Positions 1 to 24,661 of a DNA stretch of 64,000 nt are shown here, in pieces. Origin of the DNA: Plasmodiophora brassicae (Eukaryota). The stretch's first letter is position 1. Each line of letters opens with the position of its first letter. The stretch covers positions 1,116,001-1,180,000 of the forward strand of contig CP145416.1 of assembly GCA_036867785.1 (NCBI GenBank). The letters run 5' to 3'. The position numbers and the translations under genes were made by a program. The notes beneath the pieces were generated by a model. It searched no databases and was not told the origin of the DNA. It was given only the letters and a program-made list of their open reading frames with translations.

Positions 1-256
1 CGGAGATCTTGATGCCGGACTCCTTCAGGCCCGTCAGCCTTTCCTTCTGCGCAGCTTCCAGCCGCGCCAGACGATCCTTGAGCGCCGCGTTCTCGCGCTG
101 GCCGGTCCCGCTCCCGGCCGCCGCTGCTTGCAGACGTTCAACCTCCGCCTCCAGCCGATCCTGCTGCCGCTGGGCCTCGGACAGCGCAGCGCTTATCTGG
201 GCGATCACGGCCTCTGCTTGGGCCAGGTCGGCTGGGATGCTTGGGATCGTCGCCAT
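1..256 (-). CDS. 5' part of probable Gag of an LTR retrotransposon (runs off window)
   Basis: ATG at 256 opens 85 stop-free codons (MATIPSIPADLAQAEAVIAQ...LKESGIKIS), coiled-coil-like, 21 nt downstream of the LTR-like segment; absent from the ORF track because there is no stop in the window. Confidence 0.65.
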   Translation of the reverse strand, partial: MATIPSIPADLAQAEAVIAQISAALSEAQRQQDRLEAEVERLQAAAAGSGTGQRENAALKDRLARLEAAQKERLTGLKESGIKIS

Positions 257-257
257 C

Positions 258-277
258 AGAGAGTGGGACTCTTAATC
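258..277 (-). promoter_or_regulatory. Primer-binding site complementary to the tRNA-Lys(CUU) anticodon arm
   Basis: Minus strand GATTAAGAGTCCCACTCTCT directly abuts the LTR end; the plus strand reads TGGGACTCTTAATC as in eukaryotic tRNA-Lys(CUU). Confidence 0.7.
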
Positions 278-457
278 TGATTCAAGCAGTTCGAAGCGCT
301 TAGGAAAGTGAAAGTCCCCAGTGTATCTAACGTGGGGGAAGCCGACGTCCCCATGACGTCGCACACACAGTGGCACGGTCGCCACTGTGCACCAGTTGCG
401 TCACGTCGTCGTGACTCATGGGTCGGCCACTGTCGCTAGCCTTCCCATTATGAATCA
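278..457 (-). mobile_element. 180-bp 5' LTR
   Basis: Begins TGATTCA and ends TGAATCA (TG..CA, 7-bp inverted termini); followed by the PBS and ORF; its outer edge interrupts a host reading frame. Confidence 0.72.
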
Positions 458-1769
458 AGAATGAGCGTGAACTGGATGCCGCAGATCTGAAAGGTTACAT
501 ATGTTATGATTGCGTGCACAACGCCTATGCAAAGGTCAGGAAACGCCAGTCTAGGCGCTGACATCCACGTACCGATCAAAAGCGAGCACACGACTGTGCG
601 AACGACGCTCCTCTTGAGACTCTTCACTAGGTTCCTCGTATCTGCCTCAGAGAACGGTGACAAGTCCTCGATCGTGCCCATGTGTGGCTCCGTCAGCAAG
701 TAGAACAGGAACGACAGGAACGTGACAAATGCGACAATTGCATTGCTTGTACGACTGTCCAGAAAATATATCAATAAGTTCCTGAACCTCCAACAATATG
801 CTTGTCATCAACCTGACTAGCGACAACGACACGTTGAGAAACGTTGAGACATGCTGGCCGGCCCAGGCAACCAAAGCAATCGCCTAAAAGATATTGGTCC
901 AAATGATATAAAAGCTCAATATGCACCAATTCAAGATATACCTGCTCCTTTGCACGATCAGCGTCCCACGGGGGAATTTGCATGCCCCAGGATTTCGCAT
1001 AGGAGACAACGGTCTTGTAGATAGACGACGAGCCAAAGTCGGCAAGAATTTGTTTGATCTCCTCATTGCTTCCGACAAACTCTTGAATGGCTGAAACCAT
1101 AGTGTTTACCTGATTCAAATAATAGCAAATCGATATTGTGGAACGCAGAGACTATGACAGAATTACCTCATCAGCTCCATTTTTCAGAATGATTGCCAAT
1201 GGCATAACGATAAGGAATATAACCAGAACTAAGAGAAGCGATCCGACGACAGTGGCAGAATTCCCGACTAAGAAGAAGATTGCAGCCAGCAAGGTTATGG
1301 TCCAGACGATAACACTGAACAGCGACGGATCGATAGCAATGATGCCCAAGTAGATAGGCAGCAATGCTGCGATAATAAAAGGTCTGTATGGGACAATATA
1401 TGAGGTTGCCCGATGATGCAGATCCATTAGAACTGTTACGAGACAATCAGCTGCGTCTGTAGCGACAATCGCTGCAATAATGAGCTTACAATCCCGAGGC
1501 TTGGCCAGAATCATGAACCAGGTTATAGCCCAGAATAAAGCACCGAGATGTGGCCAGATAATAAGCAGATCGTAGTACAGGACCAGGCCGACAACAATAC
1601 ATATGGCCATCTGCGACAGCTGGTGGAACGTTTTCTGTACCTTCTGACGTTTAACGTCCTCCTCCGTCAGCGCTGTCGCGTTCGTCTCTCCAGACGACAT
1701 CGAATCCGCTGCCAGTCCATCGTCAAACTGCTCCAGCACCTCATCGATCACCGTCTCCGGGCCCGACAT
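458..1769 (-). CDS. TMEM245/AI-2E-like multi-pass membrane protein, 3'-truncated by the LTR
   Basis: Hydrophobic exons (IIWPHLGALFWAI; FVTFLSFLFYLL; HAIITYVTFQICGIQF) joined by GT-AG introns (e.g. about 1110-1166); the frame runs into the LTR and stops. Confidence 0.65.
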
Positions 1770-1938
1770 CGCCTATATCACCCGTCGCCGCGGGCGCTGC
1801 CAGCGTATCGTGCAGCAGCAAAACCGGGCACACACGACCCGTGTTGAAAATAGTGTCGCGGTCCAGACTCCATCACGTTCGGCAGGACGTCAAGGCAGTC
1901 CCAGGAAAGAATTTATTTTTCAGAAGGCGAAGAGGCGA

Positions 1939-2787
1939 TCAGGGGACGCTGCGAAGCGCATTGGAGGTCGGCTTCGGGGCGACGACGACGACGGGCCCGC
2001 TGGGGACAACGGCGCTGGGGCCGCCGACGCGATCATTGCCTCCGGTCAGGCTGTTGTTTCGCCCGGATTCGAGCTTGAGCCGGGTGGCGAGTTGGCTGAG
2101 AATGTAGAATTCGAATTTGATTTTGATGGAGTATACGCTGGCTTTGAGCATGACCTGGTAGTTGTACAGGTTGACGTACTCGGTGACAAGGACGGAAATG
2201 TCAAGAATTAGGACGAAAACGTTTGCTGCGATCTGCCGCATAACGAATGGTGTCGACAAGCTGTCGAACATTGTCTTTCTCGAGAAGCTGTGTATGTACA
2301 TGGCGCCGAGGATCGTCTCTTGCAGGCAGAATAACGTGACTTGAATCTTCTCGATGATGCTGTAACCAACAGTCCATGGCTCGGTCCCAATAACGTTCGA
2401 TCCGAACGTGAAGACTGTTGTCAAGAAATGCGAAAAGATGATGTTGAAAATGATAAAGTAGCGAACGTAGCGAATTTGCTTTGGGTCAATCCCGACGAGG
2501 CCCAACCGGGAGTACATGACCATGGAGAATCCGGTGACCATACAGTACCATCCGATGGTGACAATAATCAAGGGTCGATAGATGGTGCTGTTGGCAGCGT
2601 ACCATCCGTAGAACAGATCAAGATAGGAGAGGACGAACGGGATCAGACTACCGCTGGCGAGGACCAGGGACCAGAAGTACAGCCCGCTGTACTTGCTGAA
2701 TTTGGTGAAGACCAGAAGCAACGTTTCACAGCTGTTGTACAAGGCTATCGCCGACGTTGCCACGTGGAACGTCTGGGTGACATCCAT
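1939..2787 (-). CDS. Intronless ~7-TM integral membrane protein resembling an ascomycete family
   Basis: MDVTQ start; motifs SGLYFWSL, GWYCMVTGFSMVMYSRL, EKIQVTLFCLQE, YSIKIKFEFYIL; about seven hydrophobic segments. Confidence 0.75.
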   Translation of the reverse strand: MDVTQTFHVATSAIALYNSCETLLLVFTKFSKYSGLYFWSLVLASGSLIPFVLSYLDLFYGWYAANSTIYRPLIIVTIGWYCMVTGFSMVMYSRLGLVGIDPKQIRYVRYFIIFNIIFSHFLTTVFTFGSNVIGTEPWTVGYSIIEKIQVTLFCLQETILGAMYIHSFSRKTMFDSLSTPFVMRQIAANVFVLILDISVLVTEYVNLYNYQVMLKASVYSIKIKFEFYILSQLATRLKLESGRNNSLTGGNDRVGGPSAVVPSGPVVVVAPKPTSNALRSVP

Positions 2788-3009
2788 AGAACCTCGCTTT
2801 CTCTCCTGAGTTCGTAGCGACGGTGTACCGACCACGAATGCAGTGTCCAGTCAAGACTGCTGCACGTCTCTCCTTGTCACAGAAAAGTAAACCTGCGAAA
2901 GCGTTGGCAAGATGCTCGGCACTGGGATTTAGATTGTCCAGATGACATGTCCGCCCCACCCGTACCTACTCAAACAGGCTGATAACCCCCATTGAGCAAC
3001 TCGGGAGCG

Positions 3010-3160
3010 ACAGAAGTGGAGCCCGCTGAACTCGCTGACCCTGCTGAAGACGTCGAGCAACTTTCCGCAGTTGTTGTACAAGGGTGTCACCGACGTCGCC
3101 ACGCGGAACGACTCGATGACATCCATAAGACAGAGCGTTCGTTGCCTTTTACGTTCGTAA
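3010..3160 (-). pseudogene. Degenerate copy of the 5' end of the neighbouring 7-TM gene
   Basis: MDVIESFRVATSVTPLYNNCGKLLDVFSRVSEFSGLHF aligns with MDVTQTFHVATSAIALYNSCETLLLVFTKFSKYSGLYF, then similarity stops. Confidence 0.8.
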
Positions 3161-3831
3161 CTATGTTACTTCATAGTCAAGTTGAAAGGGGCGCAAGCGC
3201 CACCGGTTGGTCCACTGGTATTTTACGTACCTACGAGCCGATAATCGCTACCGAGGCTCGGAATCGCCAAGTCGAATACTTGTTCAAATGGTGCTTTCGA
3301 CCCAGAGCATCACCAAACCAAGCAGACCGGAAGCATGTTGCATCCATTCCATGAACTGAACGATCTCCGCCTAGATCAGCGGCCTTCCTCAAGACATGTC
3401 CAATAGTACCTCTGACAGGCTGACGCATGAACGCTCACCAAAGGATACTAAAACGATTGCTGTATTCAGGTTTTAGGATCAAGCATAGTAAGAGCAGTAA
3501 TCCAGCGGCTCATAAGACTCGAAAGTTACTGTCATCGACAGATCTCCAATAACCTTCTTTCTAATCATTGCCCGCCCGCGTCGTGCGTCTGTGCCAGTGC
3601 AGCCCATATCAACCTCGAAACGGCCTTTTGATGTCATCACATACCACCGGACTTGGCCCGGGCGATATCAGACCGAACATGAACCTTCACCGTAACAGTC
3701 ATTTCACTGGTCGACGCGATCTGCAGCAAGGCCCAGTGCCACGACCACCAATGACTATAACTCGACGAATCCGTCGACCGTCGTTGGTGTGCAGCCACGG
3801 AGTCCGAGGCGGACAGGCGACGTGGTTGCCG

Positions 3832-4927
3832 ATGAGCAATACCGGGCCTTTGAAGTACGGGTTGAACCTTCCCAAGAAGCGGAAAGCGGTGACGGCGCCA
3901 TTGAACGTGTTTGAGAATGCGGTCGCCGCGAACGCTAGCGCCAATGTCGCCTCTCGTGTTTCTGCAAATGGAGATCAGCAGCGCCGGAAGGTTCGGACAC
4001 CATTCCGTGGGTGTCGGCGTGATCTGACAGCTCTGTAGGCGGAGGAAGAGAAGGCAAGGTTGCTTGCAGAAGATCCGAATGTCTATGAATTCGACAGTGT
4101 CTACGACGATATGGCTGCGGCGAAGAAGGAGCGGCTCAACTCAAAGTTAACCTCTGCGTCGTCTCGCCAGGTATGTGCTTTGTGGACGTTTCAAAGTGTG
4201 CAGGTGTACTGATATTCCAGTACAGCCGAGGTACATGGAGGCATTGCAGAAACGGGCTCTGGAAAGGAAGCGAGAGCAGGAAGTCGTGTACCAGAATATT
4301 ATCAGGAAGGAACGCGTCGCAGAAGACCATTTGTATCAGTCGACGGAGGCGTTCGTGACGGCTGGATACAAAGAACAGATGATGAAGGACAATGCTTGGC
4401 AGGTCGAGCAGGACCGTATTGACGAACAGCATGCCGGTCCGACATCCCGGGGAATGGCCGGCTTCCTCTCCAATGTTCTTGCACCATCTGTCCCGTCTTC
4501 GATTAGTGCTGTCGTGGACGATCATACCCCCAAGAAACCACCGAATCGTGAGGACAAACATCATGGCAAATCGGCTCCTACTAGAGCCCAGGAGCCACCT
4601 GCTGAGAAGCCATTGTCAAGAAGAGATCGTGAACTTGCTGCTTCTCCGTCTTCGCAACGAAAGCAGGCGCCTCCACACGCTGCTGTTGCTCGGGAGCAGG
4701 CCCGCGAAGCTGAAATTGGAGCTGTATCTCCGTCTCAGGAGCAGGCTCAACAATCCGCTGCCGTTGTCCCAGAACAGTCCCGTGCAACGGAGCCTGCACC
4801 TGTACCTGCTCCTCAGGAACAGACTCGAAGAACAACATTGGATTCCGCTGCTGCTGCAAGGGAGCGATATCTCCAGCGGAAACGTGAACGCGAAGCCATC
4901 AAGGAACAAGGCGCTGGGTCGGGATAA
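3832..4927 (+). CDS. NSRP1: Nuclear speckle splicing regulator NSRP1/CCDC55-like
   Basis: KYGLNLPKK; AEDPNVYEFDSVYDDM; PRYMEAL...FVTAGYK; C-terminal AARERYLQRK; introns about 3991-4038 and 4171-4224. Confidence 0.85.
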
Positions 4928-5280
4928 ACACGTCCGTCATCGACTGACTGAAAGCTGTTTGTCCAGCTCGATGGTCTCGGTAGGCATCATCGTGCGTTTG
5001 CTTCGTCCGAGCACATAAACAACAAGAGCATGTATTATTCATACTTACATGTGTCGAATCGTCGAGAGCACATTGGCGCACAGGGTTTGAAACGAGGCCT
5101 GCAGATACTGTTTCCTCCTTTCAAGAGACACATTTTAGAGCATGAAACGAAAATGCCTACGTAGCTATGTAGGGCATCCTGTTCGAGAGATGGCATAAGT
5201 ATCGTCACTAGGGAAACGCATACGCCAGTTGCTGAATAACATTAAAAGTATTCTTTATAGATCGGTTGAAGGTTGTTCTA

Positions 5281-7076
5281 TCAGGTCATTGGTACATTCG
5301 GGCCAACCGTCGGCGTCCAGCGATGACGCAGGTAGTAGACCAGCTTTGTACAGTAGGTCGTGATGAAGTAAATGGGCAGCCCGGCAAACGTCAGGAGCAG
5401 GGCGTAGCGCGACGTTGTTGCTGTCGATGGATTCGGGTCGAACAGGCTGTATGCCACCAGGAACAGGCATGCCAGAGTAAAGGCAATGGGAGTGACTGGG
5501 TACAATGCCACCTTATAGACACGCGGCGCAGGCATCGTGAAACGCAAACGAATCAACGCAGCGCCAACAAGGGCGAAGACGATCTACCGGACGATGCGTC
5601 AGGCGAACGTAAACGAATCTGCCAGCGCCTTACGATCTGTCCGATCATGAAGTAGTTCATCACCTGATCCAGGTTGGGCACACAAATCTGCAACACGATC
5701 GCCCAGGCAGCACACGCGACAATCGAGACGAACGGGACGCCTCGCGACGATACCCGGCCAAATGGCGATGGGAACAGGTGATCGCGCGCCGCCGAATAGA
5801 AGACGCGTGTGCACCCGGCCAGTTTCGCGTTGGCGCTCCCGGCTGCACATAAAGCGATCAGGATCGACGTGACAGAGCACAGCGACGATCCGCCGATGCG
5901 GGAGAAGAACGGCGCCGCCAGGCTGGCGGTGCTCATCTCGTTCGGCTCCAGCACCGACATGAACGACACGATCACCAGAAGCCCAAGACCTGTAACGCTG
6001 CTTATCCCAGCCAGGAACACGCGAGGAACGTCGCGCGACGGATTCAGCATTTCCTCAGACAGCTATCCGAACGACGTCAACCACACGAGAAGACTGACAT
6101 TGAACCACTCTCCTACAGGTGCAAGCATCTGGAACCCTGCAAGAGCAACTGCCAAGTTAGACCTGATACAATCGCAAGAAGACATGCCGGCGTACCGTTG
6201 AACGCGAAGACTGCCTTCATGATGGCGTACACGACGAAATCCCAGTTGAGACCATCGAACAAGTTTCCCATCGACATGACGTCGGCACGAGCAGGCGTCG
6301 CCACACTGCGGTGGATGACGGCGGAGAGAAGAACGGCGCCCACCGTCAGGAACTTCACGTCTGAGGCATGATAAGAAACAGGGATATGATCCATAGGGAA
6401 TTATCGTACAGAGCAGAACGCGTTGGAGCAGAGCGGAGCTGCTCGACCCAGCCAGGTTGACGCCAGCAATGAACACGACCAGGCCAATCGACACGAGCTG
6501 GATGACAAGAGGCGTGTCCGGAACGGCCCAGGCAAGCCCGCTCACCAGGTACACGGCGCAGACACCTGTTATTGCCGCCAACGCGCCGGGTCCAATAACG
6601 ACGAAGAGCATAAACACTGACGGGGGCAATATCATGAATGTGGCGGTGATGATGTGGCCCGTCTCACCATACCGTAGCAGAAGGCAGAGACCCTACCGAA
6701 GGCAGCCTTCAGGTAGGTGGATTCGCTTCCAGCAGACACGAGTAACGTGGCCAGCTCGCTGTAGCACAGCGCCCCGGCCAGCGCTAATAGGCCGCTGATG
6801 GTCCATGCCACCAGGGTCCCGATTGGGCCAACCGATTTGTAAATGTACCCGGGACTGACGAACAGCCCGGCACCGATCAGCGATCCGATGACGAATGCGA
6901 ACCCGTCTGATGTCACCACATTGGCAAGGGCATCATCGCAAAGGAATCCAGGCCGGTTCGGTACCGAAGAACGTCAGCGTTCGCTTGAGCTGGTTGCACG
7001 CATCAGGGCCAAGATTGACCATTAGTGTCGGCTCGGCGCCTGTGCCGTCGTCCTTCACAGCGCTCCGTGACGCCAT
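5281..7076 (-). CDS. APC-superfamily (LAT-like) amino acid permease, multi-exon
   Basis: GSLIGAGLFVSPG, GALCYSELAT, NPSRDVPR, TRVFYSAARDHLFP motifs. Confidence 0.88.
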
Positions 7077-7754
7077 GTGCACGGTTTGATGCTGGTGTCC
7101 GCAATGCAAGGCGGACGTTCGTTGTTGCACCTCACGACAGAACTTGCGGACGGACGGTGCCAACGGCCGACGCTGGGTGCCCTTGTCCGTCCTGGCACTG
7201 GCGCCTGCGCCCGAAATAGATTTCCAGCACGTTCATTGATTCGCGACCCGCAGGGGCCTGTGAGCACGGCCATCGAAAGCAGTTGTGTTCCTCAAGCGAG
7301 ACGAAATCGATATCGACTCCTGCGGCACGGAGCGACATTCTGAGGATGTCAACGTGTCCTCGAAATGCAACCGTCTACTGTGGCGTGGCCTGCCACCTGC
7401 GCTGCGCATTAACGTCGATAAATACTATAGGTAGAAACGTTCAGCACCAGTCTGACGAGGAGTCGATTGCCACTGTACATTATATAGGGCCACGTGCAGT
7501 AAATTCCGCGTCCAATTCCGTTGGGAGTCGTTGGGGAACTTGGTCTTGGACCGGAAGTGCCCGTGGACCACTGAGGTGGACGGAACTGCTTTTATTTGTT
7601 TGCGTTCGCTGCGTTTCGTACGTTGTAGGTTGCAGGTTCCGGTTGGTCAACATACCAACTTAGCATCCAGCATGGCCGCAGTCCGTCATAGCAGCCGTTT
7701 GGTAGGTAGCAAATAGCAATAGGCGTCCTGCGCGAATTCGTCGGCCGACCGGCA

Positions 7755-8506: not shown

Positions 8507-9694
8507 ATGTCGCACCGTAAGTTCGAGGCACCGCGACATGGTTCGCTTGGTTTCCTGCCACGAAAGCGCTCGCGCACGATCCGCGGCCGAGTTCGCCATT
8601 TCCCGAAGGACAGTCCAGAGGCGGCCCCGCACCTAACTGCCTTCATGGCCTACAAGGCCGGCATGACGCACGTGCTCCGTGATGTCATCCGTCCCGGGTC
8701 GAAGTTGCACAAGAAGGAGGCCGTCGAGGCTGTCACCATTCTTGAGGCCCCCGCGATGGTCGTTGTCGGCCTGGTTGGGTACGTCGAGACGCCGCGTGGT
8801 CTGCGCACCCTGTCGACCGTCTGGGCGAACCACCTCAGCGACGACCTCAAACGCCGCTTCTACAAGAACTTCTACCGCTCGAAGAAGAAGGCGTTCTCGA
8901 AGTACGCTAAGCGCGTTTCGGCTGAGGATAACCAGGACGTTCAGAAGGAGCTGAACCGCATCACCAAGCTGTGCACTGTCGTTCGTGTCCTGGTGCACAC
9001 CCAGGTTCGCAAGCTGAAGCTGCGGCAGAAGAAGGCGCACCTGATGGAGGTCCAGATCAACGGTGGTGACATCGCTGCCAAGGTCAAGTTCGGCTACGAC
9101 CTGTTTGAGAAGGAGGTCCCCGTCGCGGCCGTCTTCTCCGAGGGCGAATCTGTCGACCTGATCGGTGTCTCCAAGGGTTGCGGTGTCAAGGGTGTCATCT
9201 CCCGTTGGGGTGTCACGCGTCTGCCGCGCAAGACGCACCGTGGTCTGCGTAAGGTCGCCTGTATCGGTGCCTGGCACCCGGCCCGTGTGTCGTACTCCGT
9301 CGCGCGTGCCGGTCAGAAGGGCTACCACCACCGTACCGAGGCCAACAAGAAGATCTACAAGATCGGCTGCGGCATCAAGCACGAGTCGTCCGCCAATGGC
9401 AATGCGTCGACGGAGGCGGACCCGACCGTTAAACATATTACGCCGATGGGCGGGTTCCCCCACTACGGTGAGGTCAACGAGGACTACGTCATGATCAAGG
9501 GCTGTGTCATCGGTAGCAAGAAGCGTGTCATCACGCTGCGCAAGGCCATGCACAAGTCGACGAAGCGTCGCGAGACCGAGGAGCCCGGCATCAAGTTCAT
9601 CGACACGTCCAGCAAGTTCGGTCATGGTCGGTTCCAGACTGCGGCCGAGAAGGCCGAGTTCCTTGGCCCGCTCAAGCCGCGCGACGAGGAATGA
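8507..9694 (+). CDS. RPL3: 60S ribosomal protein L3 (uL3), intronless
   Basis: [46 protein letters not shown]. Confidence 0.99.
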
Positions 9695-24315: not shown

Positions 24316-24661
24316 CCAAAATCACTTCGACCAGGCTCTGTGAAGCGCGCGACGAGCCGTAGTAGTACCTGAATCTGCGTTAGCGCAGACCGAGTCGCTC
24401 TAATCTGTGACGTCGGCCAGTTCCGCCTTGTGAATCGCAGCCCGTAGCGTAAGCCTTTAGCGCAAGTCGCTCGACTGGCCGCGCGCCGCACGGGTGCGTG
24501 TAACGGTTTGAAGGCGTCGACGTTGTTGAGGATGTGTGGCGCCTCGGCACCAGTGTCAGTTCTGATCACCCAGCGCACAGTGAGCGTGGGAAGCGGTGAA
24601 CGACGCCCGGAGGATTTCAACCGACTGGAGTCGGTCATTTCGGCCCAGGGCGACCAGAAGA

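Follow-up and report, generated by a model that had tools for sequence, protein, structure and literature searches.

The first 462 nucleotides of the stretch of DNA analysed here (64,000 nt in length, referred to below as the window) raise the question of what kind of mobile element runs off the left edge, and which primer would start its reverse transcription. The original prediction was of an LTR retrotransposon with a primer-binding site (PBS) directed at the anticodon stem-loop of tRNA-Lys(CUU), and not at the 3′ CCA end of a tRNA. Our analysis makes it probable that window 1-462 carries the beginning (5′ end) of a Ty1/copia-type LTR retrotransposon, full-length at ∼5.1 kb and lying on the minus strand, and that this element is primed by a half-tRNA-Lys(CUU). 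Which tRNA serves as primer is among the few non-coding traits by which lineages of LTR retroelements are defined, and it ties replication of an element to the cleavage of a host tRNA.

Ends of the element and the site of insertion

Read along the minus strand, the 5′ LTR runs from 457 to 278 and is 180 bp in length, with TG...CA ends. It begins with TGATTCA and finishes with TGAATCA, and inverted-repeat pairing showed that these 7-bp terminal arms (451-457 and 278-284) are 100% complementary, in agreement with the segment originally described. The PBS, GATTAAGAGTCCCA, directly adjoins the LTR at 277-264 and is followed by the seven bases CTCTCTG and an ATG at 256-254. The spacer between LTR and ATG is therefore 21 nt (277-257), and both the PBS and the ATG lie where they had been predicted. 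On the other side of the LTR, the letters AGAAT (plus strand) occupy 458-462.

The interior of the LTR contains several short perfect palindromes between 343 and 433, including CACAGTGGC/GCCACTGTG at 366-389 and CGACGTC/GACGTCG at 343-361. The same region also has candidate bZIP-type sites, with letters similar to TGAGTCA.

We mapped contigs from four public runs (X1, X10, X15 and X16) on window 1-1500. Run X1 is possibly the source of the window, and is not regarded as independent. In all four runs, contigs broke exactly at 277|278 and 457|458, with different continuations beyond both edges, indicating that the edges of the LTR are not guesswork. The distinct continuations numbered at least three before 278 and three behind 457-459, and one 180-nt contig covered 278-457 exactly in both X16 and X15. 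Mean word depth, which in contigs is not a copy number, was 265.4 in the flank, 2268.6 in the internal region and 4418-7650 in the LTR bins of X1; the corresponding values in X10 were 91, 364-442 and 921-1463. Together with the contig breaks, these steps in depth point to a repeated sequence whose LTR is present in greater abundance than its interior, and we read nothing further from them. Runs X15 and X16, which are guessed to be RNA, carried contigs over the LTR, the PBS and gag, and these were not counted for or against transcription of the element.

The full length of the element was obtained from a single contig of X15 (record 17; 4,816 nt). Letters 2-297 of this contig correspond to window 296->1, and its final 30 to 457->428. 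The contig starts 19 nt before the end of an LTR, passes through the PBS and gag and beyond the edge of the window, and enters the start of an LTR. By our own arithmetic, this geometry corresponds to an element of 5,126 nt, of which 4,766 nt separate the two LTRs. Matching sizes were found for a contig of X1 (4,824 nt) and for the longest contig (4,825 nt) encoding the database protein P0002 described below. Two direct LTRs around an internal region are thus documented by the assembly contigs and not by the window itself, as no second LTR copy was found anywhere in its 64 kb. The expectation that a second LTR and gag/pol would be found to the left was borne out in part, since the 4,816-nt contig supplied gag and the start of a second LTR. 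A polypurine tract ahead of the 3′ LTR would fall outside the window, and no loose contig end behind 457 could be traced to the 3′ end of the element itself.

We found both states of the insertion site. In X10, the letters before 458 end in ...CAAGCAGGAG and are joined straight to 458, AGAATGAGCG, with no LTR in between. X15 shares 25 of these flank letters with X10, but there they lead into AGAAT and then the LTR end at 278. AGAAT is present on both sides of the element (from X15, and from window 458-462, where we read agaat), forming a 5-bp target-site duplication with a matching empty site in X10. This copy of the element is a true insertion, and the pair of empty and filled sites is the strongest evidence for it. 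The empty site in X10, the filled site in X15 and the 5-bp duplication indicate a polymorphic insertion, which differs between runs from different studies. Being present in some runs and absent in another, it can be used as a strain marker, and is a sign of recent activity. We infer that the retrotransposon family is probably still active.

Run X10 also contained diverged variants of the element. A loose end before 314 belonged to a 9,356-nt contig carrying a diverged LTR (window 314-363), and a diverged gag showed 8 differences over 82-209. These variants indicate that the family also has older copies.

Coding capacity and superfamily

The ATG at 256 opens an ORF on the minus strand that runs off the left end of the window after 85 residues (1-256). 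As originally proposed, these first 85 codons are coiled-coil-like, and the residues are identical (85/85, 100%) to the start of P0002, a database protein of 489 aa found on three contigs. In full, the ORF (ORF1) would encode gag and a protease-like beta-barrel. Comparison of P0002 with Pfam gave matches to Pol_BBD (41.3 bits; cut-off 27), zf-CCHC (27.2 bits; cut-off 20.8) and Retrotran_gag_2 (24.8 bits, E 1.7e-5, which is below its cut-off of 27). Retrotran_gag_2 is the gag polypeptide of copia-type LTR elements. The original prediction had held that the superfamily could not be called without pol; because the ORF1 protein carries Retrotran_gag_2, zf-CCHC and Pol_BBD, it can be called, and on this domain content the superfamily is Ty1/copia. 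Along with the two LTRs, the target-site duplication and the empty site, the gag ORF upholds the reading of this locus as an LTR retrotransposon. A tblastn search of the window with nine protein queries for any other gag or pol matched only 256->2. [quoted passage not shown]

A HMMER search with P0002 over 1.84 billion representative sequences detected 876 relatives at E<=1e-3; at E<=1e-10 and E<=1e-30 the numbers fell to 72 and 19. Distant long relatives, among them P0073 and P0074, align through the ORF1 region and continue into integrase and then reverse transcriptase, which is the order seen in copia. No relative has a counterpart of the coiled-coil-like first 85 residues; the matches of relatives begin at query residues 65-90. 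This N-terminal extension belongs to Gag, because no later Met precedes the conserved block.

We aligned P0002 (alignments A1 and A2) with 14 ORF1-type relatives (27-47% identical to it), picked from the top 22 matches after leaving out shorter or fragmentary ones (P0007, P0009, P0012, P0017, P0018, P0020 and P0021). Residues Q486, D487 and F488 are invariant in these relatives, and all 14 end 0-5 residues after this QDF, which is preceded by ..LYYLDL.. (P0002 residues 476-489, outside the window). None of the 19 representatives at E<=1e-30 is longer than 489 aa. At the QDF column, P0073 and P0074, which are single-ORF copia polyproteins, read on into integrase. This pattern suggests a conserved stop after the protease-like domain and, with it, some recoding or re-initiation step for the expression of pol; the junction of protease and integrase may be a conserved site of recoding.

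We also searched environmental and other contig collections for relatives of the element. A metagenome scan with P0002 returned 64 loci, all of which were distant (at most 33% identity). GATTAAGAGTC was absent from all 64 loci, and the 17 one-mismatch matches to the 10-mer ATTAAGAGTC in their 424,686 bases were at about chance level, with none at an LTR end. No tRNA gene was detected in the 32 of these 64 loci that were scanned. Pattern searches gave 7 matches in a viral contig collection (alignment A2) and 34 in a collection of prokaryotic genome contigs (alignment A3), and no relative was present among either set. A soil-metagenome contig (L002:1-4853) is a complete copia-like element with a single ORF of 1,404 aa (408-4622), and its first 120 nt are repeated at its end. 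Some 85 nt ahead of its ATG, this contig reads ..CAACA and then GGTCATGAGCCCGG, which resembles a PBS of the half-tRNA-Met type.

The primer-binding site and the proposed primer

The 14-mer GATTAAGAGTCCCA occurs only once in the window, even when two mismatches are allowed. Its reverse complement, TGGGACTCTTAATC, is identical in 14/14 positions to the first 14 letters of the primer TGGGACTCTTAATCCCAGGG printed for the human tsRNA 'LysCTT' (PMC6932762), the comparison being with a human and not with the host tRNA. The printed LysCTT sequence continues with CCA after these 14 letters, which would close the anticodon stem. In standard tRNA numbering, these 14 letters cover positions 27-31 (the 5′ side of the anticodon stem), the loop CUCUUAA, which contains the anticodon CUU, and bases 39-40 of the 3′ strand. 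Both of the stem pairs that can be tested within the 14-mer, A31-U39 and G30-C40, are Watson-Crick pairs. An exact match of 14 nt to one chosen position of a tRNA would be expected with odds of ∼1 in 2.7e8 per tRNA species by our own arithmetic, and chance is therefore no explanation.

The tRNA complementarity of the element stops at nucleotide 40, exactly at the edge of the LTR. In the parts of the literature available to us, the half-tRNA primers of hemiviruses are stated to end at this nucleotide. Judged against the printed human LysCTT sequence, the PBS is of the hemivirus type, in that it complements an anticodon stem-loop up to about nucleotide 40 and not a 3′ CCA end, as the original prediction had proposed. 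Anticodon stems vary among eukaryotes, and two mammalian forms, ..CTCTTAATCCCAGGG and ..CTCTTAATCTCAGGG, are in print. The window contains no tRNA gene within its 64 kb, and a search of window 1-1500 against Rfam gave zero matches at E<=1. We infer that the host tRNA-Lys(CUU) probably carries the matching anticodon arm.

Conservation of the PBS across copies, a point raised in the original prediction, was also seen. All contigs across 1-306 have an identical PBS, with 0 other letters in X1, X15 and X16 over this interval. Since these are young copies of one family, their identity does not constitute independent evidence of selection.

These observations allow a mechanism to be proposed. The element would have inserted just downstream of a host gene, with duplication of 5 bp of the target. 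The tRNA-Lys(CUU) would be cut in its anticodon stem after nucleotide 40, and the last 14 nt (27-40) of the resulting 5′ fragment would pair with the PBS abutting the LTR. Minus-strand DNA synthesis would then most likely be primed by this 5′ fragment and not by the 3′ CCA end of the tRNA, which would correspond to the hemivirus mode of copia and Ty5, operating with a different tRNA. A cleaved 5′ fragment is the natural reading because an intact tRNA has no free 3′-OH at nucleotide 40, and on the match at the LTR edge a cleaved tRNA-Lys(CUU) half is most likely the primer.

We weighed three other explanations against this proposal. The match to tRNA-Lys could be real without the primer being a cleaved half-tRNA if, for example, an intact tRNA-Lys annealed for packaging or positioning and priming were carried out by something else. 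Experimental demonstration of half-tRNA priming is confined to copia and Ty5 in the accessible parts of the literature, and such priming is putative for the element described here. In addition, the end of the LTR and the PBS lie in a local hairpin (255-281, minus strand) predicted from the minimum-free-energy fold of 457->230, and could have another role. However, the complementary stretch begins at the first base after the LTR, where minus-strand synthesis must start, and it ends at the reported terminus of hemivirus primers, a position at which the intact tRNA offers no 3′-OH. We therefore consider this explanation unlikely. A different possibility is that the match to tRNA-Lys is incidental and that the real PBS is a conventional one, directed at a tRNA 3′ CCA end and situated deeper in the element at TGGCGACGATCCC, which starts at 255 and overlaps the ATG. 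There is indeed a TGG with G+C-rich letters behind it at a distance of 22 nt from the LTR, but this site is within the ORF, whereas copia-type PBSs abut the LTR, and neither G53 nor T54-Psi55-C56, invariant under standard tRNA rules, is present when its longer complement is taken as the 3′ end of a tRNA. An exact 14/14 match to an anticodon arm at the very edge of the LTR is also most unlikely to be incidental. The candidate at 255, lying 22 nt inside, in the ORF and without the invariant T-arm letters, was rejected as unlikely, and we give this explanation a very low probability.

A third explanation is self-priming of the Tf1 kind, in which the 5′ end of the transcript would fold back on the PBS and be cut to generate the primer. 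Self-priming is known for Tf1 and, as far as the available parts of the sources go, is predicted for some plant copia lineages, such as TAR. When the 14-mer was compared with the LTR, however, the best ungapped complementarity was 9/14 and the longest exact complementary run was 6 nt, which makes a Tf1-like self-primer unlikely. Moreover, the only pairing partners of the PBS in the predicted 457->230 fold are the ∼10 bases just downstream of it. Self-priming is thus the least probable of these explanations, and to us an extremely improbable one. In the predicted small hairpin itself, AUCAGA/UCUGAU and GAGU/ACUC would be the paired segments, with the LTR end and the PBS on one side and the spacer ahead of the ATG on the other.

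Taken together, the results describe a copia-type LTR retrotransposon that is well supported and recently mobile. Its PBS is hemivirus-style, and priming by a tRNA-Lys(CUU) half is plausible on the complementarity found. With exact ends, a target-site duplication, an empty site and a PBS ending at nucleotide 40, the element is a cleanly documented case.

Known elements, the neighbouring gene and the rest of the window

The original prediction had suggested that a Lys half-tRNA primer might be undescribed. [quoted passage not shown] A PBS of the half-tRNA-Lys type is already in print; the kind of element found here has been described before, and no new mechanism is involved. As in FunCo1, the present element combines a Copia affiliation with a PBS internal to tRNA-Lys, and 10/11 letters of ATTAAGAGTCT are shared with window 276->266 when compared with the part of that description available to us. 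The 11th letter of the FunCo1 PBS is T, whereas here it is C, which would correspond to a different base of the tRNA stem and may simply follow the host tRNA. FunCo1 is defined by RT/RNaseH phylogeny, while the element described here is known from its LTR, PBS and gag. In the part of the source available, the hosts of FunCo1 are given as Pezizomycotina (270 species), with 2 copies in Lipomyces and none in 245 Basidiomycota genomes (PMC5445492).

We used the ribosomal protein uL3 encoded in the window (8507-9694) to place the host relative to this range. Its scores were 578.7 to 5xxb and 575-578 to 8ip8, 4v3p, 8azw and 7qiw, followed by 564.7 to 7olc, 547.9 to 7r81 and 532.6 to 3j6x. We take 7olc and 7r81 to be ribosome chains of Chaetomium and Neurospora, and the higher-scoring entries to be from plants, animals and apicomplexans, with which the database listing is consistent. 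From a host in the Pezizomycotina, far higher scores to 7olc and 7r81 would be expected. The uL3 protein is no closer to the Chaetomium and Neurospora chains than to the plant, animal and apicomplexan ones, which weakly suggests a host outside the Pezizomycotina, the range of FunCo1, and to that extent speaks against placing the element in this clade. A tRNA-Lys(CUU) half-primer site in an apparently non-Pezizomycotina, plant-associated eukaryote would widen the range of such sites beyond the fungal FunCo1 clade, as far as that clade is described in the available part of its source.

The hemivirus-type Pseudoviridae (copia, Ty5, 1731 and Osser) resemble the element in having a PBS that abuts the LTR and is directed at an anticodon stem-loop, a primer ending at nucleotide 40, and the Ty1/copia type of coding region. 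They use initiator tRNA-Met, whereas the match here is to tRNA-Lys(CUU), and, unlike in these viruses, ORF1 of the element stops after the protease-like domain. In Candida albicans, the available part of one study (PMC4139406) describes LTR families with half-tRNA or anticodon-loop PBSs for tRNA-Arg(UCU) and iMet. The Tca2 group of this yeast, as given there, shares with our element a PBS next to the LTR that corresponds to the internal region of a non-initiator tRNA, but differs in that this is tRNA-Arg(UCU) and not tRNA-Lys(CUU), and in having a yeast host.

Half-tRNA PBSs have been reported more widely within Copia. In rust fungi, Copia and the non-autonomous Helenus elements have anticodon-loop or half-tRNA PBSs for Tyr, Ile, Asp, Asn and iMet (PMC10886601, available part), and the plant lineages Bianca, Osser, Bryco and Gymco-II are listed with 1/2tRNA-Met and 1/2tRNA-Ile (PMC6317226, available part). 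As in the present case, half-tRNA PBSs in the accessible portions of these two sources occur only within the Copia superfamily, and the tRNA species changes from lineage to lineage. tRNA-Lys is not among the half-tRNA primers that these portions give for the rust-fungus and plant lineages (PMC10886601, PMC6317226).

A more speculative reading, which we hold only tentatively and think rather doubtful, combines the primer with the conserved stop in ORF1. The element could represent a branch of half-tRNA-primed copia elements, non-fungal and so far undescribed, in which tRNA-Lys(CUU) has become the settled choice and the gag-protease ORF always stops at ...LYYLDL..QDF just before integrase. If this were true, such a branch would carry a conserved recoding or re-initiation signal for pol at a point that other copia elements pass without a break in the reading frame.

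Immediately upstream of the insertion is a minus-strand gene with gaps at 755-812, 883-940 and 1106-1162 (58, 58 and 57 nt). Contigs of X15 and X16, the runs guessed to be RNA, skip these three intervals, whose CT..AC ends correspond to GT..AG on the minus strand, and the two DNA runs, X1 and X10, do not skip them. These gaps of 57-58 nt are short spliceosomal introns in the gene adjoining the insertion. One spliced contig of this gene extends into the LTR by 28 nt.

The window is clearly eukaryotic, because it encodes uL3 and UCH and WAC/DDT domains and because the neighbouring gene has introns of 57-58 nt. Between 46001 and 48000, the plus strand shows a strong purine bias (GC skew 0.152, AT skew 0.311) over a 600-aa ORF without a Pfam family. 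At 24658-25684 lies a near-perfect palindrome of ∼1 kb, built of nested inverted repeats (55-158 nt, 93-98% complementary), and this palindrome overlaps two ORFs on opposite strands. Further along, 69-nt tandem units at 26822-28094 encode leucine-rich repeats, and the ORF at 26306-27424 matches LRR_14 and LRR_4.
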